Shown: in pieces, positions 24,681-49,877 of the stretch
How positions within the stretch are numbered: position 1 is the stretch's first letter
Layout of the letters: every line of letters begins with the position of its first letter
Source: Elusimicrobiota bacterium
GTDB lineage: Bacteria; Elusimicrobiota; Elusimicrobia; Elusimicrobiales; UBA9959
DNA length: 64,000 nucleotides
Reading direction: 5' to 3'
Assembly (NCBI GenBank): GCA_003450815.1
Contig: DMES01000037.1
Location: forward strand, 831-64,830
Translations under genes and position numbers: made by a program
The notes under the pieces: generated by a model
Databases searched by the model: none
What the model saw: the letters and a program-made list of their open reading frames with translations, nothing else
What the model was told of the DNA's origin: nothing

Positions 24681-24724
24681 CTCATTGTTCAATGCAAAGG
24701 CCGGTGGAAAATGGAAGGTTCACA

Positions 24725-26971: not shown

Positions 26972-26973
26972 AA

Positions 26974-31481: not shown

Positions 31482-32252
31482 ATGGCAAATAGAAAATTTG
31501 TGATTTTAAGACTTAAACTAACCAGAAAGAGCTGTCTTTTCGCCCTGACGCTCGCTTTCCTGTGTTTTCATCCGCGGCCACTTGGGTCGGAAACATTGAC
31601 GCTTACCACTTACTATCCGGCCCCTTATGGCGCCTATATCAGCCTGCTTACCACCCAGCAGACCCTGCTTGCCCGCGACGGCAGCAGCGTGGGTATAGGG
31701 ACATCGGGGCCTGTTCCCGCTAATATAAAGCTTTCGGTCCATTCCGGAACTACCCAAGGGAATATCTCAATCAGCGGCGTATCAGACAACGGCGCCACTT
31801 ATTCAAGTTTAACTCTAAATGACAATAATTTGGACAACAGGATAAATGCATGGGGGCTTGCCCATAAAAGGGCTCTTGGAACTGTGGAGGATAATGACTT
31901 CCAGATAGTGAGATGTAGAGGGGCTTGTGCGACACGTATGGATTTAGCTATTGACAATACCACCGGCAACGTCGGAATACAAACAAACAATCCAGCGTAT
32001 AAGTTCGATGTGTCAGGCGATGCCAGGGTGACTGGCGCCCTCAGAAGTCAGTGCACTGTCGTATGGTACTCCGGCACGACGTACTGCCCCGCCACCTATT
32101 CTTTTATGAGCAATTTGGGCGGTGGAGCCAGTTGCATTTCCGGTGGGCAATTGTTCCTTGGCGGAAATGTTAATACCCCGACTAGCTGGGTGCCGCATAG
32201 AGAAGAGAATTGTACCGGCAATATGCTTTGCTGCAGAGTACAAACAAACTAA
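31482..32252 (+). CDS. secreted/anchored protein with tail-fibre-like GNVGIxTNNP motif and Cys-rich C-terminus (paralogue 1)
   Basis: 256 aa. Has a hydrophobic N-terminus, TLTTYYPAPYGAY, IDNTTGNVGIQTNNPAYKFDVSGDARVTG, and 6 Cys in the last ~70 aa. Confidence 0.7.
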   Translation: MANRKFVILRLKLTRKSCLFALTLAFLCFHPRPLGSETLTLTTYYPAPYGAYISLLTTQQTLLARDGSSVGIGTSGPVPANIKLSVHSGTTQGNISISGVSDNGATYSSLTLNDNNLDNRINAWGLAHKRALGTVEDNDFQIVRCRGACATRMDLAIDNTTGNVGIQTNNPAYKFDVSGDARVTGALRSQCTVVWYSGTTYCPATYSFMSNLGGGASCISGGQLFLGGNVNTPTSWVPHREENCTGNMLCCRVQTN

Positions 32253-32312
32253 ACTGGCTTAAATGTAGGGGGGTTGTTATTGAGCTTTTCCCCGGCAATG
32301 ATAGGGGGCTTT

Positions 32313-33080
32313 ATGGAAAATGAACCATTTATAGTTTTAGAACTTGAATTGACCAGAAAGCGCTGCCTTTTCGCCCTGACGCTCGCTTTTCTGTGTTTCC
32401 ACCCGCGTCCGCTTGGGTCGGAAACACTGACGCTTACCACTTACTATCCGGCCCCTTACGGCGCCTATGTAAGCCTGCTTACCACCCAGCAGACCCTGCT
32501 GGCCCGCGACGGCGGCAGTGTGGGCATCGGGACATCGGGGCCTCTACCAGCGAATGTAAAGCTTTCGGTCCATTCCGGAACTACCCAAGGGAATATCTCT
32601 ATCAGCGGCGTATCAGATAGCGGCGCCACTTATTCAAGTTTGCAGTTGAATGACAATAATCTGGCAAGCACAAATGCCTGGGGAATTGCACATAAAAAGG
32701 CCCTTGGCACTGTGGAGGATAATGATTTTCAGATAGTAAAAGTTAATAATGGTGTCGCAACAGCTGCCAGACTTGCCATTGATAATACCACCGGCAATGT
32801 CGGTATAGGTACAAACAATCCATTGTATAGGTTCGATGTGTCAGGCGATGCCAGGGTGACTGGCGCCCTCAGAAGTCACTGCACTGTCGTATGGTACTCC
32901 GGCACGGCGTACTGCCCCGCCACCTACTCTTTTATGGGCAACCTGGGCGGCGGAGCCAGTTGTATTTCTGGCGGGCAATTGTTCCTTGGAGGAAATATTA
33001 ATTCCCCGACCAGATGGGTGCCGCATAGAGAAGAGAATTGTACCGGCAATATGCTTTGCTGCAGGATGCAAATAAATTGA
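32313..33080 (+). CDS. paralogue 2 of the tail-fibre-motif protein
   Basis: The start at ATG 32313 (MENEPF..) is placed by alignment with paralogue 1 and the AGGGGG SD. The N- and C-terminal thirds are near-identical to 31482..32252, while the middle diverges. Confidence 0.7.
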   Translation: MENEPFIVLELELTRKRCLFALTLAFLCFHPRPLGSETLTLTTYYPAPYGAYVSLLTTQQTLLARDGGSVGIGTSGPLPANVKLSVHSGTTQGNISISGVSDSGATYSSLQLNDNNLASTNAWGIAHKKALGTVEDNDFQIVKVNNGVATAARLAIDNTTGNVGIGTNNPLYRFDVSGDARVTGALRSHCTVVWYSGTAYCPATYSFMGNLGGGASCISGGQLFLGGNINSPTRWVPHREENCTGNMLCCRMQIN

Positions 33081-33296: not shown

Positions 33297-33785
33297 TTGA
33301 AAGAAAAAATATCAGTCAGCGTAAGTTTAAAAAGCTATAAGGCCGATACTATCCGCTACGCGGCTTATGCGGTGAGCGGGGGGGCCTATGTTTTGCTCGG
33401 GCCGGGAAAAAAAGGGGAAGTGGAGGCGGCTTTTGAACCCAAGCCGAATGCGTCCGCAAAATATCGCGCCGGCCTTCAGAAGCTTTTTGAGTCGGAGTTG
33501 AGGGACGAAAAAATGCGTTCTGAAATAGCTGATGCCAACAGGGAACTAAGGGAATTTATGGTTCTTAAAGCTCTTTCTGCCGCCGACGACGCGGGAACTC
33601 AGGCAGGCGATTATGCCGGGCTTACCCCCGCCCAGGAAAAGGAATTGGACGCGCTTATTGCCGAGGTTGAGCGCGAAATAAAAACCGAAACCGCCGGCAA
33701 AGAGCGTAAAGATCCGCTTGGCATAACCAAAACATGGGAAGAAAAACATGGCTCAGAACCTTTTAAAAATAAAAACAAAAAATAG
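33297..33785 (+). CDS. HxsD-like small protein with charged C-terminal extension
   Basis: TTG start with GAGGAGGA 9 nt upstream. The N-terminus ISVSVSLKSYKADTIRYAAYAVSGGAYVLL parallels 35196..35516. It overlaps the following HxsB-like gene by 38 nt. Confidence 0.55.
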   Translation: MKEKISVSVSLKSYKADTIRYAAYAVSGGAYVLLGPGKKGEVEAAFEPKPNASAKYRAGLQKLFESELRDEKMRSEIADANRELREFMVLKALSAADDAGTQAGDYAGLTPAQEKELDALIAEVEREIKTETAGKERKDPLGITKTWEEKHGSEPFKNKNKK

Positions 33786-35211
33786 TGTCGCGCAAACCAA
33801 TCCGCCGCATTTTTATTGGCGGGAAGTAGACGGGGCTTACCTCATAAGCAATGATTCCGGCTGCCATGCGTGGCTGGACGCGGCGGCTTTTAAGCGCTTT
33901 TCCGCCGGCACGCTCAGGGAAAAAGACAAAGCCTTTGAGGAGCTTTCTTCAAAAGGTTTTATCAGAGACAGGCTGGATTTCGCGGATTTGGCCGCAAAAT
34001 GGAAGAGCAAAAATTCCCACCTGTCCTGCGGGCCGGGGCTGCATATTTTTGTAATGACGCTGCGGTGTGACCATAAGTGCCTTTATTGCCAGTCAGGGGC
34101 CATAAGCCTGAGCGCCAAAGGCGCGGATATGAAATGGCCCGCGGCCAAAAAAAGCGTGGATTTCGCATTTCAGACCACCGCTCCCGGCCTGACTATTGAG
34201 TTTCAGGGCGGCGAGCCGCTGCTTAACTGGGCGGTCCTTAAAAAAACCGTTTCCTACGCCAGGAAAAAAGAAAAGCTTTCGGGTAAACGCCTTAATCTTG
34301 GCCTTGTTTCAAATTTCAGCCGGATGACCGAAGGGTATGCCCGGTTTCTGCTTGAAAACGAGGTTTCCCTCTGCACCTCGCTTGACGGCCCGGCTGACCT
34401 GCACAACAGAAACAGAATTTGCTCCGGCGGCAATGCCCACGTGTCGGTACGCAAATGGCTAAGGTATTTCACGCGCAGGAACACCGGGCAGGGAGCCGGG
34501 TACAGGATTTTCAAGCCCAGCGCTCTGCTTACGGTCACCAAGTTTTCGCTGGGCCGTGCGCCCGAGATAATTGATGAATATGCCGGGCTTGGGCTTGAGG
34601 ATGTCTTTATACGGCCGCTTTCGCCAATCGGTTACGCTAAAAACAGCTGGAGCGCCATAGGCTATACGGCCGCGGATTTTGTGGCTTTCTACAAAGAAAG
34701 TCTTGGATATATACTGAAACTGAACCGTAAGGGCGCCGTTATAAGGGAAAAAATGGCCGCCATGCTCCTTGAAAAGATAATCGGTTTCAGTGACCCCGGG
34801 TATCTGGACATGCGGTGTCCCTGCGGCGCCGCGGTGGGGCAGATAGCTTACAACTACAACGGAGATCTTTACACCTGCGATGAGGGCCGCATGGCGGCCT
34901 GGGAGGGGGACGATCTTTTTAAAATAGGCAATGTGTTCAGGGACAGTTATAAAAAAGCCGTTTCCTGCTCCACCGCCAGGTCATGCGTGGCCGCTTCCGA
35001 GCTGCATTTACAGCCGGCGTGCTCAAGGTGCGCTTACAGCCCTTATTGCGGTGTTTGCCCCGTGTATAACTACGAAGCGCAGGGCTCGTTGTGGGGCAAT
35101 ATGCCCGCAAACGAGAGATGCGCTTTCATGAAAGGCATATTCGGTATTCTGTTTTCCAAACTAAAAAATTCCAAAGACAGGGAGATACTGCAAAAATGGG
35201 TGAAAAAGTGA
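33748..35211 (+). CDS. radical SAM/SPASM peptide maturase, HxsB-like (copy 1)
   Basis: 487 aa. It has an ~100-aa N-terminal extension (..YLISNDSGCHAWLDAAAFKRF..), CDHKCLYC, EFQGGEPLLN, and a SPASM-type C-terminus CPCGAA..YNYNGDLYTCDEG..ACSRCAYSPYCGVCPVYN. Confidence 0.7.
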   Translation: MAQNLLKIKTKNSVAQTNPPHFYWREVDGAYLISNDSGCHAWLDAAAFKRFSAGTLREKDKAFEELSSKGFIRDRLDFADLAAKWKSKNSHLSCGPGLHIFVMTLRCDHKCLYCQSGAISLSAKGADMKWPAAKKSVDFAFQTTAPGLTIEFQGGEPLLNWAVLKKTVSYARKKEKLSGKRLNLGLVSNFSRMTEGYARFLLENEVSLCTSLDGPADLHNRNRICSGGNAHVSVRKWLRYFTRRNTGQGAGYRIFKPSALLTVTKFSLGRAPEIIDEYAGLGLEDVFIRPLSPIGYAKNSWSAIGYTAADFVAFYKESLGYILKLNRKGAVIREKMAAMLLEKIIGFSDPGYLDMRCPCGAAVGQIAYNYNGDLYTCDEGRMAAWEGDDLFKIGNVFRDSYKKAVSCSTARSCVAASELHLQPACSRCAYSPYCGVCPVYNYEAQGSLWGNMPANERCAFMKGIFGILFSKLKNSKDREILQKWVKK

Positions 35212-35516
35212 AAAGTCATTCGCGTAGAATTATGTTCTCTAAACAAATATACGCGGCCGAAGCGGTTAAACTTGCGGCTTATGTTTTTTCAGACAAAGCC
35301 GATATAAAATTAGCATCCTCCGCCGGCGGCGTCGAGGCTGAAGTGTCCTGGGAAGGGAAGGATTGCGCGGTCGCCGGAGAATTTGCGAACGAGGTTCTTA
35401 ACCAGCAATGCCGGCTTGATCTGGCCGTGAAAAATGGAAAGGTCGCAAACATGATAGTTACCAAGGCCTTGCTTTCCGCTTCCGGTGAAACAGTGAAAAA
35501 GAGGGGGAAACAGTGA
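35196..35516 (+). CDS. HxsD-like small protein (copy 2)
   Basis: About 106 aa. ..FSKQIYAAEAVKLAAYVFSDKADIKL.. resembles 33297..33785. It overlaps the upstream stop. The start is uncertain (35196, 35208 or 35232). Confidence 0.5.
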   Translation: MGEKVKSHSRRIMFSKQIYAAEAVKLAAYVFSDKADIKLASSAGGVEAEVSWEGKDCAVAGEFANEVLNQQCRLDLAVKNGKVANMIVTKALLSASGETVKKRGKQ

Positions 35517-36529
35517 AAAAGTGGACTGTTCTTGTTTTTATAGCGCTTTTGGGGCTTATACTTGGCCTGCGTTATCTGAGTAAAAAGAATGAGGCAAAAG
35601 TGGAACAGAACGCAGGCATGCAGCTGTCCGAACCGGTGGGGGTTGCTCTGCCGCAGGGGGTGAATACCTACTCTCCATCAGGCTCTGTGGCGTCTTCTCC
35701 CGCAGACTCTTCCGCCCTGGATGCGGCCGCTTCCAAAGGGGCTTGTGAGGGCGGCGCTCTTAACGACATACTGTCTTCGCACGGAGTGTCATGGGGTTAT
35801 TCTACAAAAGGCGTTGTTTTTGAACCGTCTGAAACTGAAAAGATCTATGAGGCTTTGGAAAATTATTTTTCCTGCGAGGCTGTCGCCATGGACGATATGG
35901 CTGCATGTGGGCCCTTAACGACCGATTCGGGTGATAAAGGCGATGTGCGTTTCAGTAATCCAAGATATAAATGTTCCGATAGCGCGAACAGGGTGCTGTT
36001 CAAGGCCTATATGGCGGGGATGCACGGCAATGCTTCGGCTTGTGCGTCATTTCTTGCAGGCGATAGTGTCAAGGACATCAAGTTGGATACTGTTGAGTTT
36101 TGCAATATAGCCGCAAAGGGGATGGAGAATATCTGTGTCGGCCTTGCTCCCTTTCTTCCGGCCTCAAAAAAAGCGGAATGCCTGACGGTTTTTCCAGCTA
36201 AAAAAACCGACTGTAGCGGCAAAGAATTCTGTCTGGATAATTACAAAATATATTCCGCCATCAAGGCCAGAAATCCGGGCCAGTGCCCTGAGAAGTACCG
36301 GCCCGCTTGTGAAGCTTTCTTCTCTAAGCGTCAGGCTTCCTGTTCAAATCTCATCACGAAGGCCAGTAAACTGTATTGCTCATCCCTTGCCGTGTTAAAA
36401 AAGAAACAAGCCAGCGGCATGTTTTTGTCTGAGCAAGAAAAGAAAGATGCCGAAATACGGAAAAAGGAAGAGGAAAGAATAATGCAGGAAGTAAATAAAA
36501 ATGCGAGGAAAATGCTGGGTAAGGAGTGA
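35513..36529 (+). CDS. membrane-anchored cysteine-rich protein, hypothetical
   Basis: GTG start overlaps the previous stop (GTGA) and has GAGGGGG upstream. It has one N-terminal TM helix. I count 14 Cys. The tail is Lys/Glu-rich. Confidence 0.65.
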   Translation: MKKWTVLVFIALLGLILGLRYLSKKNEAKVEQNAGMQLSEPVGVALPQGVNTYSPSGSVASSPADSSALDAAASKGACEGGALNDILSSHGVSWGYSTKGVVFEPSETEKIYEALENYFSCEAVAMDDMAACGPLTTDSGDKGDVRFSNPRYKCSDSANRVLFKAYMAGMHGNASACASFLAGDSVKDIKLDTVEFCNIAAKGMENICVGLAPFLPASKKAECLTVFPAKKTDCSGKEFCLDNYKIYSAIKARNPGQCPEKYRPACEAFFSKRQASCSNLITKASKLYCSSLAVLKKKQASGMFLSEQEKKDAEIRKKEEERIMQEVNKNARKMLGKE

Positions 36530-36536
36530 AAATTTT

Positions 36537-36869
36537 ATGGCTCAAAAAAAATCCAAGCTTAAAAAAAATATAAAAATGTTCCTTAACAGCGAAGAAGGTA
36601 AAATGCTGGATGCCGATATTGTTAAAACCGGCATCGCCTTGGGTATTATGGGCGCGGTCATGGCGGATCAGGCTGCGGCTCAGGCCGTTGTACATTCAAA
36701 CTATTTTTTTAATTCAGGCCCAGGCAGTGGTTCAGGCCATGCCAGCCACCAGAGCCACGGTTCGCACGGTTCGCACGGTTCGCACGGCTCACACGCCTCG
36801 CACGGTTCGCACGGTTCGCACGGTTCGCACGGTTCGCATGGCTCGCACTCGCGCGGCGGCTGGTGCTGA
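36537..36869 (+). CDS. His-Xaa-Ser repeat peptide (HxsA-like candidate precursor)
   Basis: AAGGAG is 9 nt upstream of ATG 36537. It is 110 aa: [21 protein letters not shown] / [29 protein letters not shown] / ..GPGSGSG / HAS HQS (HGS)4 HAS (HGS)5 HSR / GGWC. Confidence 0.8.
36738..36854 (+). repeat. 9-bp tandem repeat (CACGGTTCG and variants) encoding the His-Xaa-Ser triplets
   Basis: Read directly. There are 12 full 9-nt units plus a terminal CAC TCG CGC. Most units are identical at the nucleotide level. Confidence 0.95.
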
Positions 36870-36927
36870 TGCTTTTTTCCGGCGCTTTGCTCTTGTTTGA
36901 ATAGCTGATGGATGTTTAAAAAATCCG

Positions 36928-37056
36928 ATGGCGCAGACGTATGTGTGGCGCCATAACGAGTGGAAAGGCGGTCGTCTGGCGGCTCAGTACGCTGTCAAAA
37001 ACGGCTTTAAATTGGAAAGCCTTATATCTTACAATTATCCCCCCCGCATCTTTTGA
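36928..37056 (+). CDS. candidate 42-aa small ORF coupled to the following radical SAM gene
   Basis: Below the track's size cutoff. [42 protein letters not shown]. Its TGA abuts ATG 37057 (TGAATG), and 37057 has no SD of its own. The sORF has no SD either. Confidence 0.3.
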
Positions 37057-38157
37057 ATGAAAGTTCCAAAAGAAATACAGAAACTGAAAATAGCGCTCAC
37101 AACGGATTGCGTTCTTGCCTGCCGGCACTGTCGGGTGGACAAAAAGGCCGGACTCACTATAAGTTTAGACGACGCTGCCCGTGGAGTGGATATGCTGATT
37201 TCCTCTCCCGGGAAATTGAAACGTCTTGAACTTTATGGAGGTGAGCCGTTTCTTAAATTCCGGCTGTTTAAGGATATCGTGCAATACGCCGTAAGGCTTT
37301 CGGCGCGGTCCTGCAAAAAACTTTCAATTTCAGCGGCCTCAAACGGGCTTGTGCTGAATGAAGACCACCTGAAGTTTATCAGGGAAAACCGTGTTAATCT
37401 CTCCATAAGCATTTCCGGCTCGGAGAAGGCTCATGACCTGACACGCGTTTATCCCGGAGGCGGTGGAAGCTACGCCGACCTCAAAAAAAAGCTGGCGCTT
37501 ATCTTCTCCCGGCTTGAGGCTGAAAATATTGTGGCGCTTGAATGCGTACATCCGGCCTGTGCCGCGTCGCTTGGACCCGATTTGCGCCGCTTGGCCGACT
37601 TTGGTTTTAAAGTGATAAATATAGAATGTGTGCACGGGCCTGATTGGGGGCAAAGCTCTCTTAAGGCATTTGAAAGTGCCCTCCTTTCTTTCTCGGGCCG
37701 GCTTTTTACGGCAGTTAAAAAAGGCGTTTACATAGCGCCGGAGCCGTTTCTGGAATTTTTTCGGGTAAAAGGCGCGGCTGCCAGTCTTCAATGTCCTCTT
37801 TACAGAGATCTTGAGCTTTATCCCGACGGTGTTTTTTCTTTTTATCCGTTTGCCTTTATGGATTATTCTAAATGGCGAAAAGCGGTTAAACTAGGAACCT
37901 CCATTTCCGGACTTTGCAGGAGGTATTCGGCCTGTATACCTGGTGGAAAATTGTGCGCCGGCTGCGTCAGTAAATATTATGTGATCGGAGGACTTGCCGG
38001 CGGAGCGCGTGCCTATACCCTTAGAACGGCGGTGCTTAAAAAAGTGCTTCTGGATATAATGCGGCGTGCCCGCACAGAAAAGGCCTTTAACGGGTATGTG
38101 CGCTGGCTTGCAGGCATTGAGCAAAGAACCTATGTCGATTACCGTGGAATGAAGTGA
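37057..38157 (+). CDS. radical SAM protein with auxiliary-cluster (SPASM/twitch-like) C-terminus
   Basis: 366 aa. Has CVLACRHC, LYGGEPFL, and later Cys motifs CPLY..PDGVFSFYP and CRRYSACIPGGKLCAGC. Confidence 0.75.
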   Translation: MKVPKEIQKLKIALTTDCVLACRHCRVDKKAGLTISLDDAARGVDMLISSPGKLKRLELYGGEPFLKFRLFKDIVQYAVRLSARSCKKLSISAASNGLVLNEDHLKFIRENRVNLSISISGSEKAHDLTRVYPGGGGSYADLKKKLALIFSRLEAENIVALECVHPACAASLGPDLRRLADFGFKVINIECVHGPDWGQSSLKAFESALLSFSGRLFTAVKKGVYIAPEPFLEFFRVKGAAASLQCPLYRDLELYPDGVFSFYPFAFMDYSKWRKAVKLGTSISGLCRRYSACIPGGKLCAGCVSKYYVIGGLAGGARAYTLRTAVLKKVLLDIMRRARTEKAFNGYVRWLAGIEQRTYVDYRGMK

Positions 38158-38220
38158 ATGCCGCAAACGGCGGGTTGCAGGATGTCTCAAAAATAAAAAA
38201 AATCTTTTCCATTGAAATAT

Positions 38221-39624
38221 ATGAAAAAACCATTCATAGCATCGTACAATTTCAATTTTGTAAAAAAAGGCCGAAATATTTTAATTTCAAACGAGTTCGG
38301 CGGCTGGAGTCTTATAGGTGAGGCTGATTTTAAAAAATTGGCCGCCGGAAGGCTTTTACACGGCAGTTTAGCGCGTGAGCTTTCCGAAAAGGGGTTTGCG
38401 GCCAACCGCATGGATATGAAAGGCATGGCATTAGGGCTCTCCAAAACGCTGTTTGGTGGTTGGAAAGGGCCGCACGTACATATAATTTCGCTCACACAGC
38501 GTTGCAACCAAGCCTGCGCGTATTGCTGCGCCTCAGCGGGTCACGGCGGCGGCGGCATGAGCCGTAAGACCGCGGCCAAAACCCTTGATTTTATTTTTTC
38601 CATCCCCTGCGGGGACCTGGTTATGGAATTTCAGGGTGGAGAGCCGCTGCTTAATTTCAGCGTTCTGCGGTTCATGGTGAACTCGGCGCGGCGCCGCGCC
38701 GTTGCGCAAGGCCGAAGGGTTCATTTCTCAGTGGTCACAAACCTTACCGCCATGACCGCGGCAAAGCTGGAATTTTTGGTTTTAAACGGTGTTACAATCT
38801 GCACCTCCCTTGACGGGCCCGCTTCCCTGCACGACGCGAACCGCAGATTGGCCGGGCGCGGGACACACGCGCTGGTAACCGCCTGGCTTAAAAAAACAAG
38901 AGTTGCGGCAAAGAAATACCCAGGGTTTGAGCCGCCGAACGCAATCAGCACTATAACGCGCGCTTCGCTGGCGCAGCCCGAGCGTATAGTGGACGAGTTT
39001 ATCAGGCAGGGCATACGCCGCGTGCAACTTGGGCCGCTGGATCCGTTGGGACGCGCCGCCGGCGGCTGGGGCGCGCTGGGTTTTTCCGCCGCGGAATTTC
39101 TGGCTTTTTATTCACGGGCGCTGGATTACATGCTGGCGCTTAACCGCCGCGGTAATCCGGTTTATGAGAAAGGCGCGGTTATGTTCTTAAAGGAAATATT
39201 CGGATTCGGGCGGCCGCGCTACCAGAACCTGGATATTTTTTACCGTCTCGCTTACAATATAGACGGCGGAGTTTACGGGTCGGACGAGGCCCGGATGCTG
39301 GCCAACTCCGGAGACGACTCCTTCCGCCTTGGCAGTGTGCAGCGGGATAGTTTTAAGAGGCTTATAAAAAAACCGACTACCAGGCTGCTGCTGCTTTCGG
39401 CCTTTCCGCAGCTTACCCAGAGCGCCTGCGCCCGCTGTCCATATTCGGTCTGGTGTCGTGTAAGCCCTGCTCATAACTGGGCCGCGCAGGGTTCCTTCTG
39501 GGGAGATATGATGACCAGCCAGCGCTGTGCGATTTTTAAAGGGGTGTTTGACCTGCTTTTATCCAGGCTGAGTGATCGCGCCGCCGGGCCTGTCCTGCGG
39601 CATTGGTCGGAGTTTGAGCCTTAA
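38221..39624 (+). CDS. radical SAM/SPASM peptide maturase, HxsB-like (copy 2)
   Basis: MKKPFIASYNFNFVKKGRNILISNEFGGWSLIGEADFKKL.., CNQACAYC, EFQGGEPLLN, ..ACARCPYSVWC. The track's start at 38212 is TTG, so ATG 38221 is preferred. Confidence 0.7.
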   Translation: MKKPFIASYNFNFVKKGRNILISNEFGGWSLIGEADFKKLAAGRLLHGSLARELSEKGFAANRMDMKGMALGLSKTLFGGWKGPHVHIISLTQRCNQACAYCCASAGHGGGGMSRKTAAKTLDFIFSIPCGDLVMEFQGGEPLLNFSVLRFMVNSARRRAVAQGRRVHFSVVTNLTAMTAAKLEFLVLNGVTICTSLDGPASLHDANRRLAGRGTHALVTAWLKKTRVAAKKYPGFEPPNAISTITRASLAQPERIVDEFIRQGIRRVQLGPLDPLGRAAGGWGALGFSAAEFLAFYSRALDYMLALNRRGNPVYEKGAVMFLKEIFGFGRPRYQNLDIFYRLAYNIDGGVYGSDEARMLANSGDDSFRLGSVQRDSFKRLIKKPTTRLLLLSAFPQLTQSACARCPYSVWCRVSPAHNWAAQGSFWGDMMTSQRCAIFKGVFDLLLSRLSDRAAGPVLRHWSEFEP

Positions 39625-39636
39625 ATTCCCGTCACT

Positions 39637-40680
39637 ATGATAAAATCTAGGTATATGAAGGCAAAAGCTCTTTCCTACAGGCAGGCTGCGGCGCGTTTCG
39701 GCTGGCCGGCAGGGCGGATGAAAATTTGCGAACTAACGCTCGGCTACTCCTGTAACGCCCGCTGCGTGTTCTGCTACAGTTCGCCGGAGCTTGAAAACTG
39801 GAAAGAGCGTCCGTCCATGGATTTAAGGCGGGCGGGGGAGCATTTGCTGGCTTCCTATAAAAATGGCGCCCGCATGCTACAGATTATAGGCGGCGAGCCC
39901 ACCATAAACGAAGACCTTCCCCGCGTAATAAGTCTGGCCAAACGCACAGGTTACCTGGCGGTGCAGATAGTGTCAAATGGCCTTAAGCTTGCGGACGAGG
40001 ATTTTGTTAAAACGCTTGTAAAATCAGGCTTGAATACCGCCAATCTTTCTATCCACGGCCCTGACCGCGTCACCCACGACGCGGTAGTGGGGGTTGAGGG
40101 GGCTTTTGAAAGCACTCTTAAAGCGGCGCGCAATTTAATAGATGCCGGGGTTTACATCAACACCGGCACAGCCGTCACAGGCATTAATTACCGTAAAATT
40201 CCGGCCCTGGCCGCTTTTGTTCTGCGTGAGCTGGGAGTGGATTCCTGCCACATTATAGCCGCGCATTACCTTGGAGCGGCCTTCAAAAGGCGCAGGGCCC
40301 TGCGTGTTACTTACACTGAACAGATGCCGTATATTAAGAAGGCTGTGGCGGCCTTCCGCTTGGCGTATGTGAGGCCGGCTTTCGCTTTCCTAAGCAATTA
40401 TCTGCCCTGTGTGCTGCCCGGCTACGAGGCCCTGATGGGCGACTGGAAGTATCCTGAGGCTGACGACGACCTGTATCTGCCGGAAGCCAGTCACGAAGGA
40501 CGGATGTACACGATGATAACCGAAACTCTGCGCATGAAGTCTCCTTACTGCAAGCGGTGTGTTTATTGTGGCGTCTGCGCCGGTTTTGAAAAAACATATT
40601 TTGAAATGTTTGGCGGCGGGGAATTTGTTCCGCTTCTTGAGAAACCGGATGTTTACCCACTGAAGCCGGTGTGCGTATGA
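39637..40680 (+). CDS. radical SAM protein, compact CX2CX5C family
   Basis: 347 aa. Has CNARCVFC, IIGGEPT, LPCVLPGYEALM, and the C-terminal CKRCVYCGVCAGFEKTYFEMFGGGEFVP. Confidence 0.8.
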   Translation: MIKSRYMKAKALSYRQAAARFGWPAGRMKICELTLGYSCNARCVFCYSSPELENWKERPSMDLRRAGEHLLASYKNGARMLQIIGGEPTINEDLPRVISLAKRTGYLAVQIVSNGLKLADEDFVKTLVKSGLNTANLSIHGPDRVTHDAVVGVEGAFESTLKAARNLIDAGVYINTGTAVTGINYRKIPALAAFVLRELGVDSCHIIAAHYLGAAFKRRRALRVTYTEQMPYIKKAVAAFRLAYVRPAFAFLSNYLPCVLPGYEALMGDWKYPEADDDLYLPEASHEGRMYTMITETLRMKSPYCKRCVYCGVCAGFEKTYFEMFGGGEFVPLLEKPDVYPLKPVCV

Positions 40681-40736
40681 GTTGTACTAGGGTGAAATTT
40701 CTTCTTAATTTTTACCGGTCAGGCGTGATCTGAAGT

Positions 40737-41582
40737 ATGAAAATGCAGGTGGGGATAGGCTCTTTCAGGGAATTGGATTACTTTCTGGCCGCGGGCGCCG
40801 GGGAGTTCTACTGCGGCCTTGATAAAATACCAAGCCATGTTGAGGGCGCGTGTAATTTCGGGAGTTTGGACGATATCCTGACGGCCGCAAGGCTGGTCCA
40901 TGCCGCAGGCGGAAAAATGTTTTTTGCCGCCAACGAGGTTCATGCTTCTCTGCTGGAAGAGACCGGGTGCGTTATAAGAGAACTGGCGAACGGCGGCATA
41001 GACGGCGTGATAATAAAAGATCTAGCCCTGCTGGACCTGCTTAAGCGCCGCGGCATTAAGACCGCTTATATTCTCAGCACTCTTTCATGCTGCATGAACG
41101 CCGCCACGCTGGCCGTTTACCGCGGATACGGGGTTAAGCGGCTCGCTCTGCCCGAGCAGCTTAACCCGGCCGAAACCCGCGAACTGGTGTGTAATTCCTG
41201 GGGTATAGTCTCCGAGGTCTTTCTGAAAGCTCGGGAATGCTGCAGGAATTTCAACGGCCTCTGTTTCCTGGACTGCCACGGAAAACAATCCAACACCTGC
41301 GGGAAGAGCTTCCGCCGTGAAGGCGGCGGTGTTTTTCGGATGCCGGGCTTTTCCCCGGAGGAACATATGGCCCAGCTGCATGACTATTACCATATGGGCG
41401 TGGGAGTGCTGAAAGTGGGGCGCTCTCCCAGACCCGAAACCTCGCGGCTGGTTTTTAAGGAGGCGCTGCTGCTTCTGGATCTATTGAAATCAGGTTTGGG
41501 CCGTAAAGCCTTTACAGGTGAAGCCTTGCGCGTACATACTGTCTTTGACAAGGCTTATCGTCACCTTATAGAGAGAGTCTGA
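40737..41582 (+). CDS. peptidase-U32-family protein
   Basis: 281 aa. Has AGAGEFYCG, GIDGVIIKDLALL, RLALPEQLNPAETREL, and the Cys cluster ECCRNFNGLCFLDCHG..TCG. It is paralogous to 26974..27930. Confidence 0.7.
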   Translation: MKMQVGIGSFRELDYFLAAGAGEFYCGLDKIPSHVEGACNFGSLDDILTAARLVHAAGGKMFFAANEVHASLLEETGCVIRELANGGIDGVIIKDLALLDLLKRRGIKTAYILSTLSCCMNAATLAVYRGYGVKRLALPEQLNPAETRELVCNSWGIVSEVFLKARECCRNFNGLCFLDCHGKQSNTCGKSFRREGGGVFRMPGFSPEEHMAQLHDYYHMGVGVLKVGRSPRPETSRLVFKEALLLLDLLKSGLGRKAFTGEALRVHTVFDKAYRHLIERV

Positions 41583-42278
41583 ATGGAATTAGCCGTGCTG
41601 CTTACTCCCGAAGAGGCCCGCGCCGCGGGCCCCGGCTTGTTTAAAAGGTATTCCAGGGCTTATGTCGGAAGCGGGTTCTGCCAGAACCTCCTGCCGGAAG
41701 CGCGGGATATAGGCATGCTTCATTCAAAAGGCGCTAAAACCATTACACTGGCAACTCCGCTGTTTACCGGCGCCGGCCTGAAAAAATTCGAAAAAATCCT
41801 GAAAGCGGTGCTGGAAACGGAAAAAAGGATTGAGGTTTCGGTAAATGATTTGGGTTTGCTGGCCTTGCTGCGACGGCGCTACCGCGCGCGGGTGACGCCG
41901 CTGCTCGGCAGGCCGGTCTCGCATGATTATCTCCGCATGGAGCCGTCTTTTTTGAAACGGTTTTTGCGGTATTACGGCGTGAAATACCTTGAAAGCGACG
42001 AAAATTCCATGGTGCGCAATCTTCCGGCTTCGTCAAAACTGGCAGTGTCTTTTCATTACCCGCTTGCCTGCCTAGCCATGAGCCGTTTTTGCCCGCACGA
42101 GGGCCGTATGGACGACAGTTGCGCTCGGTCCTGCGCGGTAGGCCCTGTAAAACTGGAAGACGCCTGCGGAGAACAGCTGATTTTAAAGAACGGCGCGTAT
42201 TTTGCAGGGAATACGCCCTGCCGTCACAAGGCTGTAAAGCGTCTGGTTTACGCTCCGGGCGGTTCACTTAAGCTTTAG
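41583..42278 (+). CDS. U32-like partner protein
   Basis: 231 aa. Its ATG directly abuts the upstream stop. YVGSGFCQNLLPE, VSVNDLGLLALL and the Cys cluster SRFCPHEG..DSCARSC are paralogous to 26150..26971. Confidence 0.6.
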   Translation: MELAVLLTPEEARAAGPGLFKRYSRAYVGSGFCQNLLPEARDIGMLHSKGAKTITLATPLFTGAGLKKFEKILKAVLETEKRIEVSVNDLGLLALLRRRYRARVTPLLGRPVSHDYLRMEPSFLKRFLRYYGVKYLESDENSMVRNLPASSKLAVSFHYPLACLAMSRFCPHEGRMDDSCARSCAVGPVKLEDACGEQLILKNGAYFAGNTPCRHKAVKRLVYAPGGSLKL

Positions 42279-42314
42279 AAGCCTGTCCGGCATAAAGAAA
42301 AGAATTATTAAAAA

Positions 42315-43220
42315 ATGAAAAGAGTTGATATAAAAATAGGCTTCAACTGCAATAACCGCTGCGATTTCTGCGCGCAGGGGGACAAGCGTTACAAGAGCAA
42401 ACAAAAATCCCTGACAGAAATAAAACAAATTCTTCGGACCGCCCGCGCCTCCGGAGTGAGCGGGGTGGTTTTTACCGGCGGCGAACCCACGCTGCACCCC
42501 GGCCTTATAGATGCCGTAAAGGCCGCCCGCGCCATGGGGTATGTCAGCGTGCAGGTGCAGACCAACGGGCGGCATTTTGCCTATTACGATTACTGCGCGG
42601 GGCTTAAATCCGCCGGGGTCACTGAAATGGGGCCCTCGCTTCACGGCTCCAGCCCTGAAATTCATGAGGGCCTGACCAACGCCCCGGGAAGTTTTAGCGA
42701 GGTGGTTAAAGGCATACTCAATTGCAAGCGACTCGGGATGTATGTGTTGACCAATTCCGTGATTACAAAAAAAAATTACAAAGATTTGCCCGCGCTTGCT
42801 AAATTGCTCTTATATCTTAAGGTCGATCAGTATCAGCTGGCTTTTATTCATATAATAGGCACGGCTCTTGAAAACCGTGCCGGGATAGTGCCCCTAAAAA
42901 GCGACGCTATGCCGTTTATCCGCCGCGCCCTTGACGCTGGTATAAAAAAAGGCGTGCCCTGCTACACCGAAGCCATACCCTTTTGCCTGATGAAAGGGTA
43001 TGAGCGGTGCGTGGCCGAACGGATAATTCCTGAAGGGCCTGTAGCCGATGCCGGCATTTACGTTAAAAGTTACGGCGATTGGCGCCGCAACCAGGGCAAG
43101 CTCAAGCGAAAAGAGTGCCGGAGCTGCCGCTGGTTTGCGATCTGCGAGGGGCCCTGGCGGGAATATCCTGGGTTATACGGCTGGGATGAATTTGTGCCGG
43201 TCAAGAATAAAGCCGGTTAA
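42315..43220 (+). CDS. radical SAM protein, compact CX2CX5C family
   Basis: 301 aa. Has CNNRCDFC, FTGGEPTL, IPFCLMKGYERC, and CRSCRWFAICEGPWREYPGLYGWDEFVP. Confidence 0.8.
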   Translation: MKRVDIKIGFNCNNRCDFCAQGDKRYKSKQKSLTEIKQILRTARASGVSGVVFTGGEPTLHPGLIDAVKAARAMGYVSVQVQTNGRHFAYYDYCAGLKSAGVTEMGPSLHGSSPEIHEGLTNAPGSFSEVVKGILNCKRLGMYVLTNSVITKKNYKDLPALAKLLLYLKVDQYQLAFIHIIGTALENRAGIVPLKSDAMPFIRRALDAGIKKGVPCYTEAIPFCLMKGYERCVAERIIPEGPVADAGIYVKSYGDWRRNQGKLKRKECRSCRWFAICEGPWREYPGLYGWDEFVPVKNKAG

Positions 43221-43314
43221 AGCGATCCCGTTTAGCTGGATATTGAAAATGAATATAATGAACTATACCGGACTTATACCGAAGGCGGCTTGGCACGGGT
43301 TTTCTGCATAATCA

Positions 43315-44250
43315 ATGTCTGAAACCGGAATTTACGAATGTTATCTTACATACAGGTGCAATCAGCGCTGCACATTTTGCTTTGTGTCGGAGGCGGAGCG
43401 CGCGGTCGGAGCGCCAATCGGTTTCAAAAGCATAATAGGCAAAATTTACAAAATGAGAAAGGCCGGCTGCGATGACCTGCGGCTACTGGGGGGGGAACCG
43501 GCCATGTATCCGGATATAACCGGAGTATGCGCGGCTGCCTCAAAGATCGGTTATAAGAGCATAACTATTTTCACCAATGGAACCTGTTTTGCCGGCAATG
43601 AGCTCGCCAGTCAACTGAAGAAATACGGGCTTGACAGGGCGAATGTAAGTATTCATTCGCACAAGCCGGAAGTCCACGACAAGATAACCGGGGTGAAGGG
43701 TTCTTTTTACAGGATGCTTTCCGGTCTGGACAGCCTCCGACGCGCCGGAGTGAGGATTAGCTTTATCTGTGTGGTGAATTTCCTCAATGCCACAGAACTC
43801 AACAGGACGACGGCTTTTTTTCTGAACAAGGGCATTTCCGGATTCACTTTCTTTTTCACAAAATATCAGGGACGGATGGTTGAAGAGCCTACCAGGTCTG
43901 ATAAACTTTCCATCAGCATGTCCGAAGCGGCGGCCGTGGTGAAAAAAGCTCTCGGAGTATTCAGGCGCCATAAAATGCCATTGCCCGGGCTGGAACATTT
44001 TCTTCCGTGCGTTCTTCCAGGCTATGTACGGCTGATGACCGATTATTTTCCGGCAGAGGCTGGAAAACCGGACACTGGCTATCTGGTGCATCCGGATGGT
44101 ATTACGGCCCGAGTGTATGCCACAGCATATAAAGGCCGCAGATGGCTTGAAACCTGTTCCCGCTGCAGATTTCGGCGGGGCTGCTGCGGGATAGATCCCG
44201 GATATCTGGCTAAATTCGGTTCGCGGGAGTTTAAGCCGGTAAAAAAATGA
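43315..44250 (+). CDS. radical SAM protein, compact CX2CX5C family
   Basis: 311 aa. Has CNQRCTFC, LLGGEPAM, LPCVLPGYVRLM, and CSRCRFRRGCCGIDPGYLAKFGSREFKP. Confidence 0.8.
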   Translation: MSETGIYECYLTYRCNQRCTFCFVSEAERAVGAPIGFKSIIGKIYKMRKAGCDDLRLLGGEPAMYPDITGVCAAASKIGYKSITIFTNGTCFAGNELASQLKKYGLDRANVSIHSHKPEVHDKITGVKGSFYRMLSGLDSLRRAGVRISFICVVNFLNATELNRTTAFFLNKGISGFTFFFTKYQGRMVEEPTRSDKLSISMSEAAAVVKKALGVFRRHKMPLPGLEHFLPCVLPGYVRLMTDYFPAEAGKPDTGYLVHPDGITARVYATAYKGRRWLETCSRCRFRRGCCGIDPGYLAKFGSREFKPVKK

Positions 44251-45671
44251 AAAAAACCATGTCGCTTATGCCTTTTGGTTTTGCGCCGGTTACCGGAGGG
44301 GTGTTGGTTTCCAACGACTTCGGCGGCTGGCTGGTTCTGGACGGAAGGGAGTTCAGGAGCCTGAAAGACGGAAGCTTTGCGCGCAAGAAAGGGCTTTGCG
44401 CCAAACTTGCACGGCGCGGTTTTATAAAAGAGCGGCTTGATTTTGAAAGCCTCGGGCAGGATATGGGCGGACTTCACAGGCACAGTTTCGGCGGCCCGAG
44501 CCTGCACATACTTGTGGTAACGCTGAAGTGCAACCACGCCTGCGTTTATTGCAGGGCGGTAAAAGCCGGCGGGTTTGAAAAAGCCGTGATGAGTCTTGAG
44601 ACCGCCAAAAAAAGCATAGACATGGCCTTTTCCTCACCGAATAAAAATATCGTTATTGAGTTCCAGGGCGGCGAGGCGCTCATAAACTGGCCGGTAGTCA
44701 GGAACGCCATTCTTTACGCCCGGAAGAAAAACACGGCATACGACAAAAACCTTGAAATTTCGGTTGTAACGAATCTTAGCCTGATGGACGAGGAAAAATT
44801 TTCTTTCCTTACCGGTCACGGCGCCGGGGTATGCGCCTCTCTTGACGGCCCCGCTTTTTTGCACGACGCCAACCGGCGCTACGCTGGAGGCTCTTCGCAT
44901 GAAAAGACCTTGTATTGGCTGAAAAAAGCGCTTTCCTTGAAACATGGCGGGGAAAAAGACTCGCTCCCTTCGGCTCTAATGACGGCCACAAAGCTTTCAC
45001 TGAAGTATCCGGAAGAAATTGTTGAAACTTACCGCAAGATCGGGCTGGGCGGTATATTTCTGCGTCCGCTATCGCCGATAGGCTTCGCGCGGTCTGTTTG
45101 GGGCGATATCGGCTATAAGTCTGAGGAATTCGGTTCTTTTTACCGTTCGGCGCTTGAACATATTCTCAGGCTGAACCGGCGCGGCGAGCGTTTTGTGGAG
45201 CGCAATGCCGCCATAGTGGCCCGGAAAGCGCTTAAAAAAGAAGACCCCAACTTTCTGGATCTGCGTTCTCCGTGCGGAGGAGCCATTGGACAGCTAGCCT
45301 ATAACTGGGATGGCGGGGTTTACACCTGCGACGAAGGCAGGATGGCAGGTTTCGGCCGGGACGATTTTTTCAGGCTCGGCAGCGTTTACAAAAACTCTTA
45401 TCAGGAAATAATCAGCGCTCCCGCGGCCAGAGTTTGCGCTTTGGCTTCCTGTCTAGAAAACCAGAGCGCCTGCTCGCGCTGCGCGTGGAAGCCTTTTTGC
45501 GGAGTTTGTCCCGTGTATAATTATGAAACCCAGGGGTCTCCGTGGGGAGATATAGTCACCGGGGACTGGTGTAAAATACAAAAAGGCATTTTCTCGGCGG
45601 TTTTTGACGCCTTGTCAAAACCCTCCAGCCGTAAGATTATAGAGGGCTGGCTGGACACAACGGATAGGTAG
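44247..45671 (+). CDS. radical SAM/SPASM peptide maturase, HxsB-like (copy 3)
   Basis: 474 aa. ATGA overlap with the upstream gene. Has ..VLVSNDFGGWLVLDGREFRSL.., CNHACVYC, EFQGGEALIN, and CGGAIGQLAYNWDGGVYTCDEG..ACSRCAWKPFCGVCPVYN. Confidence 0.7.
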   Translation: MKKTMSLMPFGFAPVTGGVLVSNDFGGWLVLDGREFRSLKDGSFARKKGLCAKLARRGFIKERLDFESLGQDMGGLHRHSFGGPSLHILVVTLKCNHACVYCRAVKAGGFEKAVMSLETAKKSIDMAFSSPNKNIVIEFQGGEALINWPVVRNAILYARKKNTAYDKNLEISVVTNLSLMDEEKFSFLTGHGAGVCASLDGPAFLHDANRRYAGGSSHEKTLYWLKKALSLKHGGEKDSLPSALMTATKLSLKYPEEIVETYRKIGLGGIFLRPLSPIGFARSVWGDIGYKSEEFGSFYRSALEHILRLNRRGERFVERNAAIVARKALKKEDPNFLDLRSPCGGAIGQLAYNWDGGVYTCDEGRMAGFGRDDFFRLGSVYKNSYQEIISAPAARVCALASCLENQSACSRCAWKPFCGVCPVYNYETQGSPWGDIVTGDWCKIQKGIFSAVFDALSKPSSRKIIEGWLDTTDR

Positions 45672-45803
45672 ATAGGCTGTAGGCAGTTAGCCTGTGGGAG
45701 GAAATTTTTCGCGGTCATGCGAAGTGTAGAGCGTTCTGGGCGCCTTGGTCGGTTAATGCGTAACGACTAACAGCCTTCAGTCTATAGCGTAAACAACCTA
45801 TTT

Positions 45804-46691
45804 ATGCCTGATATATCTTTTTGGAACAAATGCAACAGCAAGTGCGTGATGTGTACAAACATGGCTTCTTTTTCCTCGCAGGACAGCTCGCAGTACGGCT
45901 TGAAGAGGCAGATACGGAAAATGGAAAGCTATCTGAAGGGGGAGAGCGTATATTTCAAGAACGCAGACAAATCCGATTTTTTAAGCCTTACCGGCGGCGA
46001 GCCCACCTTACACCCCGATTTTTTCCAGCTGCTCGCCTATTTCAGGCGGAGGCTTGCCGGGACGCCCATCAGGCTTCTGACAAACGGAAGGACGCTTGCT
46101 GATACCGGGTTTACCGCTAAATTGCTGAAAACAGCCGGTCCTCCTTTCTGTTTTATAATTCCTCTGCATGGCTCCGGCCCCTCTCTGCACGATAAGGTCG
46201 CCGGAGTGAAAGGCTGTTTTATGCAGACCATGAAAGGGCTGGAGAACCTGTTTTCCATGGCCGGCGGCAGGGATATAGAAATACGCGTTGTTCTTCATAA
46301 GTTGAACGCCGTGGCTTTGCCTGACATCCTGAAACTTCTGCTTAAAAAATTCCCCCGCACTTCCCGCTACCGCGTGGTAGTTATACACTATGAGATAGAG
46401 GGGGAGTCGGAAAGAAACCACCCCCTGCTGGCGTTACGGTTTAAAAATTCTGTCCGGGCCGTGCGCGCCTGCGTGCGCCTTCTGCCAAAATTCGCGCATC
46501 TTGAGCTTTATCATTTTCCACTTTGTGTTCTTCCGCCGTCTTTGCGTGCCCTGGCCCGCGTCACCCTGCCCCGCGCGGACAGAATATATCCGCCCTCAAA
46601 ATGCGGCCGCTGCGCGCTCAAAGCAAAATGCCTGGGGCTTATGCGTGCATACCACAAAAAATTCGGGGCCTCGGAGCTGAAAACTATATGA
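45804..46691 (+). CDS. radical SAM protein, compact CX2CX5C family
   Basis: 295 aa. Has CNSKCVMC, LTGGEPTL, FPLCVLPPSL, and CGRCALKAKCLGLMRAYHKKFGASEL. Confidence 0.8.
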   Translation: MPDISFWNKCNSKCVMCTNMASFSSQDSSQYGLKRQIRKMESYLKGESVYFKNADKSDFLSLTGGEPTLHPDFFQLLAYFRRRLAGTPIRLLTNGRTLADTGFTAKLLKTAGPPFCFIIPLHGSGPSLHDKVAGVKGCFMQTMKGLENLFSMAGGRDIEIRVVLHKLNAVALPDILKLLLKKFPRTSRYRVVVIHYEIEGESERNHPLLALRFKNSVRAVRACVRLLPKFAHLELYHFPLCVLPPSLRALARVTLPRADRIYPPSKCGRCALKAKCLGLMRAYHKKFGASELKTI

Positions 46692-49839: not shown

Positions 49840-49877
49840 AGCTGATTTTTTGGGACTTTTTAAGTTAAAATCAAAAT

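Follow-up and report, generated by a model that had tools for sequence, protein, structure and literature searches.

Three divergent HxsB-type maturases with unequal auxiliary cluster sites encoded around one His-Xaa-Ser precursor in an Elusimicrobiota gene cluster

Why should a bacterium encode three related radical S-adenosylmethionine (SAM) maturases around what appears to be a single peptide substrate? That question is raised by positions 33297-45671 of the DNA studied here, which belong to a stretch of 64,000 nucleotides (64 kb, hereafter the window) from an uncultured Elusimicrobiota bacterium (source contig JGI Ga0103681_1000096; GenBank locus tags DCL44_048xx, with proteins HAH31624-HAH31637 belonging to the same metagenome-assembled genome). 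A reading made from the sequence alone had seen there three radical SAM/SPASM proteins of about 470 amino acids, two HxsD-like proteins and one obvious substrate gene. It had proposed that the three maturases may do different jobs, with either one peptide being processed many times or further substrates being encoded elsewhere. We favour, with moderate confidence, the interpretation that 33297-45671 is the core of an approximately 27 kb, vertically conserved, Elusimicrobia-type expansion of the Hxs system, in which three specialised maturases share one precursor. The genes upon which this interpretation is built are the following.

33748-35211, plus strand: B1, HxsB paralogue of 487 amino acids (TIGR03978, 468 bits, model positions 4-466)
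38221(38212)-39624, plus strand: B2, HxsB paralogue of 467-470 amino acids (TIGR03978, 354 bits, model positions 5-465)
44247-45671, plus strand: B3, HxsB paralogue of 474 amino acids (TIGR03978, 445 bits, model positions 1-466)
36537-36869, plus strand: HxsA4-type precursor (NF038313, 57.3 bits with a cut-off of 55; leader hidden Markov model (HMM), 111 bits)
33297-33785, plus strand: D1, HxsD-like protein of 162 amino acids with a C-terminal extension of about 60 residues, overlapping B1 by 38 nucleotides
35196-35516, plus strand: D2, HxsD-like protein of 106 amino acids (TIGR03976, 45.8 bits; PF27806)

The three proteins, seen earlier at 33748, 38221 and 44247, were borne out by the open reading frames (ORFs) as well as by the HxsB equivalog model TIGR03978, which matched all of them over its full length with E-values from 1e-140 to 1e-106, B1 and B3 passing its curated cut-off of 370 bits and B2 falling just below. 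The model for the anaerobic sulfatase maturase, TIGR03942, gave 67, 56 and 79 bits for B1, B2 and B3, to be compared with its cut-off of 349, and the PapB, SCIFF, nif11 and CcpM models gave 63-127 bits, far below their own cut-offs. Since the TIGR03978 scores thus far exceeded those of TIGR03942 and the other maturase models, the three proteins are HxsB-like, as had been proposed, and closer to HxsB than to sulfatase maturases. NCBI annotation already gives B1 and B3 as HxsB, and an exact look-up of B2 in database records found the 467-residue form starting at ATG, the 470-residue form with a TTG start being absent. CX3CX2C and the shared EFQGGE(P/A)L(L/I)N motif pointed out earlier were found in all three copies. 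The motif described for their N-terminal regions was present in B2 (LISNEFGGW) and B3 (LVSNDFGGW), but B1 reads LISNDSGCH, with 'GC' in the place of 'GG'.

With regards to the age of the copies, scanning a single genome for each species gave 78 related loci (numbered with an L below), of which the majority were from Elusimicrobia and the rest from Myxococcota, Omnitrophota, Schekmanbacteria and Patescibacteria-binned genomes; ORFs were called in these loci and compared with the proteins of the window. The pairwise comparison and tree that the sequence-only reading had suggested gave identities of 39% for B1-B2, 43% for B1-B3 and 37% for B2-B3, and three separate, well-supported orthogroups. 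In the neighbour-joining tree the B1 orthogroup comprised 34 sequences (49-79% identity to the window copy, bootstrap 94), that of B2 had 14 (39-57%, bootstrap 99) and that of B3 had eight (55-59%, bootstrap 100). B1 and B3 were sisters in a large clade, nearly all members of which have a full SPASM region, and B2 fell outside that clade. All three types were found together on a single contig in L024 and L028 and as contig pairs in L011 with L060, L014 with L062 and L027 with L067, while B2 and B3 types occurred together in L052 and L072. Because the copies are only 37-43% identical and each has its own orthogroup in other Elusimicrobia species, they are, as judged from their sequences, ancient paralogues and not recent duplicates. 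The earlier terms 'triplicated' and 'duplicated', taken as events in this genome, should accordingly be abandoned, as the copies are old and the arrangement of B1 between D1 and D2 is the norm for the clade.

The copies differ most tellingly in the auxiliary (Aux) Fe-S cluster sites of their SPASM regions. Positions were assigned in B1 numbering by alignment to the anaerobic sulfatase-maturating enzyme anSMEcpe, in which Aux I is held by Cys255, 261, 276 and 330 and Aux II by Cys317, 320, 326 and 348 (PMC5715301). B1 has all four Aux I cysteines (C357, C359, C377 and C437), with C357 kept in 31 of the 34 members of its orthogroup. B3 has three, a Ser replacing C357 in all eight members, and B2 has none, the counterparts of Cys359, Cys377 and Cys437 being gone in 14 of 14 members. 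The Aux II cysteines C425, C428, C434 and C458 were present in all three copies and, again, in 14 of 14 B2 members. The SPASM end of copy 2 reads CARCPYSVWCRVSP, thereby keeping CX2CX5C and the last Cys of Aux II without the upstream cysteines. The 'full SPASM end' earlier ascribed to all three copies thus stands for B1 and B3, which have a total of 7-8 SPASM cysteines, but not for B2, which is without counterparts of Cys357/359, Cys377 and Cys437 of B1. The three copies are therefore not equivalent, since copy 2 has lost the Aux I cluster site. As its four Aux II cysteines are kept and neither CX3CX2C nor GGE varies among 88 family members, B2 types included, B2 gives the impression of a working enzyme that has one cluster less, and not of a gene in decay.

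The same pattern was seen in the canonical enzyme. HxsB of a Klebsiella pneumoniae plasmid (NZ_CP092766.1; L085 4004-5392) has lost all Aux I cysteines, reading SPSG...YGSDE...CDTCAYQPFCGADP, and has the Aux II cysteines only, with Asp at the fourth position of CX2CX5CX2C, where B2 has Ser; a Microvirga homologue (L086 7947-9425) showed the same Aux-II-only pattern. Canonical HxsB hence probably holds two, not three, Fe-S clusters, a matter not discussed in the functional paper of 2026 (PMC13128918). B1 and B3 differ from the studied HxsB at the cofactor site, having a full SPASM region where that enzyme has Aux II only. Aux I cysteines were also gone in scattered members of the otherwise full-SPASM clade (L079 385-4278, L061 661-2172 and L081 9941-11440), and the site seems to have been lost repeatedly.

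The region preceding the radical SAM barrel had been noted as unusual and as a candidate peptide-recognition module. It is not unusual, in that it belongs to the TIGR03978 family model and is kept in other genomes too, down to the HxsB of Klebsiella with its 27% identity. AlphaFold modelling of B1 with 88 homologues (predicted local distance difference test (pLDDT) 92.7; predicted template modelling (TM) score 0.91) placed three strands (residues 23-27, 30-34 and 40-43) and then three helices (45-52, 61-68 and 78-88) before the barrel, with a pLDDT of 91-96 for residues 21-100. This order of elements is what the structure prediction proposed earlier was meant to look for, and the modelled N-terminal region of B1 has the beta3-alpha3 topology of a peptide recognition element (RRE), that is, a PqqD-like winged helix. 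When the whole B1 chain was compared with solved structures using Foldseek, the top match was CteB (5wgg; E 3e-22, 484 aligned columns, TM 0.68/0.74), and TigE (8vpo) and SuiB (5v1q) aligned over about 480 columns, the domain being part of a full-length query. Second came anSME (E 8e-18, TM 0.64/0.84), which aligned over only 388-409 columns and lacks the N-terminal domain. A profile alignment reached CteB from residue 51, within its N-terminal domain, and the original structure papers of CteB and SuiB reportedly describe both enzymes as carrying RREs. A predicted role in peptide recognition thus gains support from the modelled RRE topology together with the end-to-end alignments to CteB, TigE and SuiB.

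For a peptide whose leader these domains might recognise, the window offers one candidate. The HxsA protein of 110 amino acids consists of a conserved leader, 12 HxS units at 36738-36845, mostly His-Gly-Ser, and a C-terminal SRGGWC (36855-36869). Nearly all of its core is His, Gly, Ser and Ala, with one Cys and no Arg or Lys in the repeats, the number of which varies between species from about six to more than 20 (e.g. the genes at L031 7792-8112 and L079 about 4300-4679). Its hydrophobic segment comes after a charged, conserved leader of 29 residues, so that a standard N-terminal signal peptide is absent, and no Pfam domain was found in it, hence no Pfam-detectable peptidoglycan-binding domain. 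Conservation of the leader across 28 species is strong, as would be expected for a recognition sequence. Substrates were searched for in the 64-kb window and within +/-10 kb around the related loci. A scan for HxS repeats and the leader HMM both confirmed a single HxS gene in the window, and the leader HMM never found more than one HxsA per locus in 48 related loci, whether these had one, two or three HxsB genes. Of the two earlier options, one peptide processed many times is accordingly favoured over additional substrates, none of the 48 loci having more than one HxsA. One assembly has a 42-residue ORF at 36928-37056 annotated as a gene; this was considered as a second precursor and rejected, as it had no conserved counterpart in 84 loci.

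The tail of the precursor follows the distribution of B2. HxsA tails were of two main kinds, (S/A/Q)RGGWC or GSY/GQW/GAW. An RGGWC tail was accompanied by a gene of the B2 orthogroup in 12 of 12 determinable contigs, and the GSY/GQW/GAW tails in 0 of 7 contigs having 8 kb or more covered. In L079, where the HxsA tail reads HCRGGWCNPRC, the accompanying HxsB paralogues come from a different branch and have become devoid of Aux I independently. Different jobs for the three copies, as had been suggested, would fit with how old they are, with each having a conserved orthogroup of its own and with the differences between their Aux I sites.

The HxsD-like proteins D1 and D2, 32% identical to each other, both had a precomputed match to PF27806 (HxsD), which was also found on nearly all of the 117 homologues of D2. 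With TIGR03976 (HxsD, cut-off 50) D1 scored 38.5 and D2 45.8 bits, and NF038315 gave 31.9 bits with a cut-off of 41. An HMM of HxsD homologues, run over all six frames of the window, found only D1 (76 bits) and D2, so the earlier observation that two such proteins flank copy 1 and no other copy holds; two HxsD-like ORFs per locus was also the commonest state among related loci (34 of 60). The model of D2 (pLDDT 87) has a beta-alpha-beta-beta-long-alpha arrangement, and the idea that HxsD is a stand-alone RRE was rejected, since the fold differs and PDB matches reached neither an E-value below 6e-3 nor a TM above 0.45.

The earlier description of the cluster overlooked the HxsC-like gene following each of B2 and B3, as well as the full extent of about 26150-53280. 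The remaining genes of this region are given below.

26974-27930 and 26150-26977, minus strand: peptidase-U32 gene (PF01136, 48 bits) and, at the partner position, an ORF of 275 amino acids
28034-28954, minus strand: HxsC-like radical SAM protein of the divergent unit (PF04055, 48.5 bits)
31482-32252 and 32274-33080, plus strand: pA and pB, tandem proteins, 84% identical, no Pfam match
35513-36529, plus strand: Cys-rich protein of 338 amino acids, N-terminal hydrophobic segment, no family match
37057-38157, plus strand: S1, short radical SAM protein of peptide-maturase type (PapB/nif11 models 92-107 bits, far below their cut-offs)
39655-40680, plus strand: Ca, HxsC-like (HxsC4 98.6 bits, HxsC 92.8 bits), directly 3' of B2
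40737-41582 and 41583-42278, plus strand: U32-like gene (PF01136, precomputed; UbiU model 41 bits) and its partner of 231 amino acids
42315-43220, plus strand: Cb, HxsC-like (HxsC4 152 bits, HxsC 104 bits)
43315-44250, plus strand: Cc, HxsC-like (HxsC4 82 bits, HxsC 77 bits)
45804-46691, plus strand: Cd, HxsC-like (TIGR03977 154 bits), the nearest of the set to canonical HxsC, directly 3' of B3
46688-47839, plus strand: Mem, conserved ORF of 383 amino acids without a match in Pfam or NCBIfam, located in most loci between Cd and Ce
47836-48765, plus strand: Ce, radical SAM protein
48766-49839, plus strand: S2, radical SAM protein
49878-51140, plus strand: Cf, radical SAM protein
51140-52033, plus strand: Cg, radical SAM protein
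52027-53280, plus strand: SufS-like cysteine desulfurase at the cluster end (TIGR01979, 248 bits)

From 33297 to 53280 every long ORF lies on the plus strand, with gaps being short or ORFs overlapping, in the order D1-B1-D2-Cys-rich protein-HxsA-S1-B2-Ca-U32-partner ORF-Cb-Cc-B3-Cd-383-residue ORF-Ce-S2-Cf-Cg-SufS, as assigned by NCBIfam and Pfam scans. Together with the minus-strand unit this makes about 20 co-directional and three divergent genes, including 13 radical SAM genes in approximately 27 kb (26150-53280), namely three HxsB, eight HxsC-like (seven on the plus and one on the minus strand), S1 and S2. The order barnase-barstar-pB-D1-B1-D2 was found again widely among related loci, and the tail order Cd-Mem-Ce-(S2)-Cf-Cg-SufS was likewise kept. 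Next to species having a single HxsB (L012, L016-L019), the window gives the appearance of having a block, which runs from the Cys-rich gene through B3, placed between D2 and Cd. As the flanks were unchanged across species whose orthologues are 50-79% identical, the locus has, from its gene order, the character of a stable chromosomal locus and not of a mobile island. The 3' gap of HxsA showed neither an attenuator nor a terminator (fold z-score 0.03, with a weak 5-bp stem at the stop codon). Between 33000 and 52900 there were 48 terminator-like sites (33.9 +/- 6.1 in shuffled sequence) and 22 promoter-like sites (14.7 +/- 3.8), thus about two standard deviations above expectation, none of which marked a clear operon boundary.

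All of the HxsC-like proteins scored below the curated cut-offs (TIGR03977, best 154 bits with a cut-off of 267.9; the HxsC4 model NF038332, 27-152 bits with a cut-off of 500), and by these scores they are relatives of HxsC and HxsC4, not equivalogs. Ce, Cf and Cg gave 63-141 bits with the HxsC4 and HxsC models, and S2 gave 113 bits with the PapB model. B2-Ca adjacency was seen again in L026, L027, L033, L043 and L067, and B3-Cd adjacency in L024, L028, L052, L060, L062 and L072. The U32 pair at 40737-42278 was kept in L023, L027, L033 and L067, while the minus-strand trio of U32 partner, U32 and radical SAM gene was also found upstream in L012, L013, L019, L021 and L022; in related loci the counterparts of the ORF at 28034-28954 matched Cg at 26-31%. 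The U32 family includes the O2-independent hydroxylases UbiU/UbiV and TrhP. A SufS gene occupied the same position in L012, L016-L019, L060, L062, L067 and L072. S1 has no RRE-like N-terminus, and the hydrophobic-rich 383-residue ORF is possibly a membrane protein. Cf has a C-terminal extension of about 120 residues with a weak S10_plectin (winged-helix-like) match (E 0.007).

The Cys-rich protein kept 10 cysteines in 22 orthologues, and a large protein collection gave only nine homologues and no domain. Its gene lay upstream of HxsA, nearly always directly adjoining, in 20 of the 26 related loci having a mapped HxsA. Both pA and pB have a hydrophobic segment followed by TLTTYYPAPYG (GSE-L-LTTYYPAPYG-Y), and their C-terminus is rich in Cys (CTGNMLCCR); the pB family has 35 conserved columns among 22 sequences, with a homologue directly 5' of D1 in most Elusimicrobia loci, and pA and pB are possible members of the Hxs system. 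Further upstream, 29238-30220 encodes a ribonuclease of the barnase type (PF00545), which is secreted, together with the inhibitor barstar (PF01337), a pair kept upstream in many species, and 22023-26026 encodes a BamA-type Omp85/POTRA protein on the minus strand and a PIN-PhoH fusion on the plus strand, probably unrelated housekeeping genes.

Under the interpretation that three specialised maturases share one precursor, each RRE-type domain, as modelled, would dock the HxsA leader, and the three enzymes would carry out different, non-redundant steps initiated by hydrogen abstraction along the repeats and tail of one peptide, with B2 being linked to RGGWC. Further modifications could then come from the HxsC-like enzymes, some of them acting together with HxsD by analogy with the canonical HxsC-HxsD pair, anaerobic hydroxylation may be the task of the U32 pairs, and SufS would supply sulfur for the many Fe-S clusters.

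Several points weigh against this interpretation. Divergence between the paralogues is greatest in their RRE-like domains (25-31% identity, compared with 38-50% elsewhere), which could mean that different partners are recognised. The association of RGGWC with B2, approximately 1e-5 in a naive Fisher test, does not account for shared ancestry, and the leader search was limited to 64 kb of this genome and +/-10 kb of the related loci. When the HxsB tree was rooted with S1 and S2 of the window, distances were saturated and support reached only 5-11 of 40 replicates, so that B2 and canonical HxsB may or may not share a single loss of Aux I. The mapped modification in the studied system was modelled on HxsC-HxsD and not on HxsB (PMC13128918).

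The divergence of the RRE-like domains also lends weight to the possibility that each HxsB has a substrate of its own, which might be the Cys-rich protein, pA/pB or peptides encoded outside the window. The Cys-rich gene and pB, with their frequent positions upstream of HxsA and beside D1 and their conserved cysteines, would be natural candidates, the more so as CteB, the nearest solved relative, makes Cys thioethers. We nevertheless regard separate substrates as unlikely, although worth keeping in mind. Neither the window nor the 48 related loci yielded another ORF with the leader, and the presence of B2 follows the tail of HxsA itself. The Cys-rich protein and pB, at 260-340 residues with N-terminal hydrophobic segments, are unlike leader-core peptides. 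Moreover, loci with a single HxsB also carry both genes, which thus do not scale with HxsB number.

Could the cluster instead be an enlarged antiphage defence system, the matured HxsA blocking phage DNA entry in the periplasm as in the characterised HXS? It has HxsA, HxsB, HxsC and HxsD homologues in common with the system that defends E. coli (PMC13128918), and both the barnase/barstar pair and the PIN-PhoH gene lie upstream. However, its HxsA is without the signal peptide, peptidoglycan-binding domain and basic repeats on which that mechanism rests, and the published systems are four-gene systems in more than 99.8% of cases, 99.7% of these being from Pseudomonadota (PMC13128918). The flanks are the same across species, whereas the Klebsiella copy lies between insertion sequence (IS) elements of a plasmid, and in three related genomes, described below, the cluster is fused to nitrogenase-like genes. 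PADLOC 2023, which has no Hxs model, gave only weak, generic matches to viperin-type radical SAM proteins (pVip). A role in defence of this kind therefore strikes us as rather improbable.

Redundant duplicates, or a copy 2 that is degenerating or serves as a non-catalytic scaffold, would agree with the sub-threshold score of B2 and its loss of three to four SPASM cysteines. Yet the copies are too dissimilar and too widely kept, each with its cross-species orthogroup, to be redundant duplicates, and the loss of cysteines is uniform in 14 orthologues that are themselves 39-57% identical and in which CX3CX2C, GGE and the Aux II cysteines are invariant. The functional Klebsiella-type HxsB is likewise Aux-II-only, and active-site mutants of HxsB lose defence (PMC13128918). 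Such decay or redundancy is thus very unlikely. That the three proteins have been misassigned, and are sulfatase maturases or another SPASM peptide-maturase family, can be dismissed as highly improbable even though anSME came second in Foldseek and some homologues carry the JGI label 'sulfatase maturation enzyme AslB', in view of the model scores given above, the shorter alignment of anSME without an N-terminal domain (388-409 columns, against 484 for CteB) and a cluster that contains no sulfatase gene.

Within one operon, this lineage has HxsB in three natural forms that differ in their number of Aux I cysteines (four, three and zero) and that apparently face one very simple repeat substrate; that the Hxs system is functional was first shown only in 2026. 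B1, B2 and B3 form a comparison set for the purpose of the first auxiliary cluster in SPASM enzymes, and 13 radical SAM genes around one peptide would mean a very heavily tailored ribosomal peptide.

Compared with the canonical HxsDBCA system of Klebsiella and E. coli (Li et al. 2026, PMC13128918), the cluster is alike in having homologous HxsB, HxsC-like and HxsD-like proteins, an HxS-repeat protein and an HxsD gene directly 5' of an HxsB gene. Canonical HxsB shares the N-terminal domain of the window copies, at 27-30% overall identity to them, and its Aux-II-only pattern is that of B2, only B1 and B3 having a full SPASM region. HxsB and HxsC genes go together as a rule in the canonical systems (PMC13128918), which is echoed by the B2-Ca and B3-Cd pairs. 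The size differs greatly, with four genes including one each of HxsB, HxsC and HxsD on the one hand, and about 20 plus three divergent genes including three, eight and two of these on the other. Canonical HxsA, at 211 amino acids, comprises a signal peptide, a peptidoglycan-binding domain and HxS repeats that are five in number and basic, unlike the 110-residue window protein with its conserved leader, 12 repeats (mostly HGS) and RGGWC, and the hxsD-hxsB-hxsC-hxsA operon of Klebsiella lies between IS elements on a mobile plasmid, whereas the window locus is chromosomal and syntenic. In the canonical system HxsB, HxsC and HxsD are all required for HxsA processing, HxsC binds HxsD, and a change of +8 Da lies on the last HxS unit (PMC13128918).

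A second comparison is offered by CteB, TigE and SuiB, the best sequence and fold matches, which have the same succession of RRE-type domain, radical SAM barrel and SPASM region with two auxiliary clusters. They are only 15-18% identical to the window proteins and come as one maturase per cluster, not as three paralogues. The substrate of CteB is Cys-rich and those of the others are Lys/Trp peptides, unlike the HxsA core with its one Cys. The Aux I site of CteB is said to have three cysteines, like that of B3. The radical SAM and SPASM core is also shared with anSMEcpe (4k36-4k39), and Aux I of B1 is fully Cys-ligated as in that enzyme, which acts on Ser or Cys, every HxS unit containing a Ser. 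It differs in having no RRE-type domain, in its TIGR03942 model scoring far below cut-off here and in its sulfatase context.

A third comparison concerns groundwater Elusimicrobia, in which up to 13 radical SAM genes have been described beside group VI nitrogenase-like genes, with tetrapyrrole reduction as the proposed function and with neither a peptide substrate nor His-Xaa-Ser being mentioned (Meheust et al. 2020, bioRxiv 10.1101/765248). We found HxsD-HxsB-HxsA directly beside NifH- and NifD/K-like genes in L033 (3782-8507), L053 (12622-16610) and L063 (4890-8637 and 17336-20825), which scored 195-265 bits for Fer4_NifH and 60-125 bits for Oxidored_nitro and included two NifH-NifD fusions; L033 also had a tetrapyrrole methylase. 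These genes appear to be the group VI paralogue of that study with its radical SAM suite. A search of the window for NifH-like P-loops found none. Because of this adjacency in the three loci, part of that radical SAM suite is probably the Hxs system, in which case HxsA would be a concrete candidate substrate for the question posed by the group VI nitrogenase-like enzymes. More speculatively, and with considerable doubt on our part, the product could be a peptide-derived metal-binding or redox cofactor and not a defence protein, a poly(His-Gly-Ser) rebuilt stepwise by 13 radical SAM enzymes and U32-type anaerobic hydroxylases. In some Elusimicrobia it would then undergo reduction by the group VI nitrogenase-like enzymes, which would thus act on the modified peptide and not on a tetrapyrrole.

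The papers that could be searched gave no account of clusters with more than one HxsB or of auxiliary sites that differ between copies. With regards to the HxsA4 family (NF038313), the window precursor passes the cut-off, the precursor type thereby being already catalogued by curators, while the types B1, B2 and B3 are not told apart by any curated model. The Hxs family and the HxsA4 type are thus already known, and the Elusimicrobia cluster with several HxsB genes is new as a variant of them.

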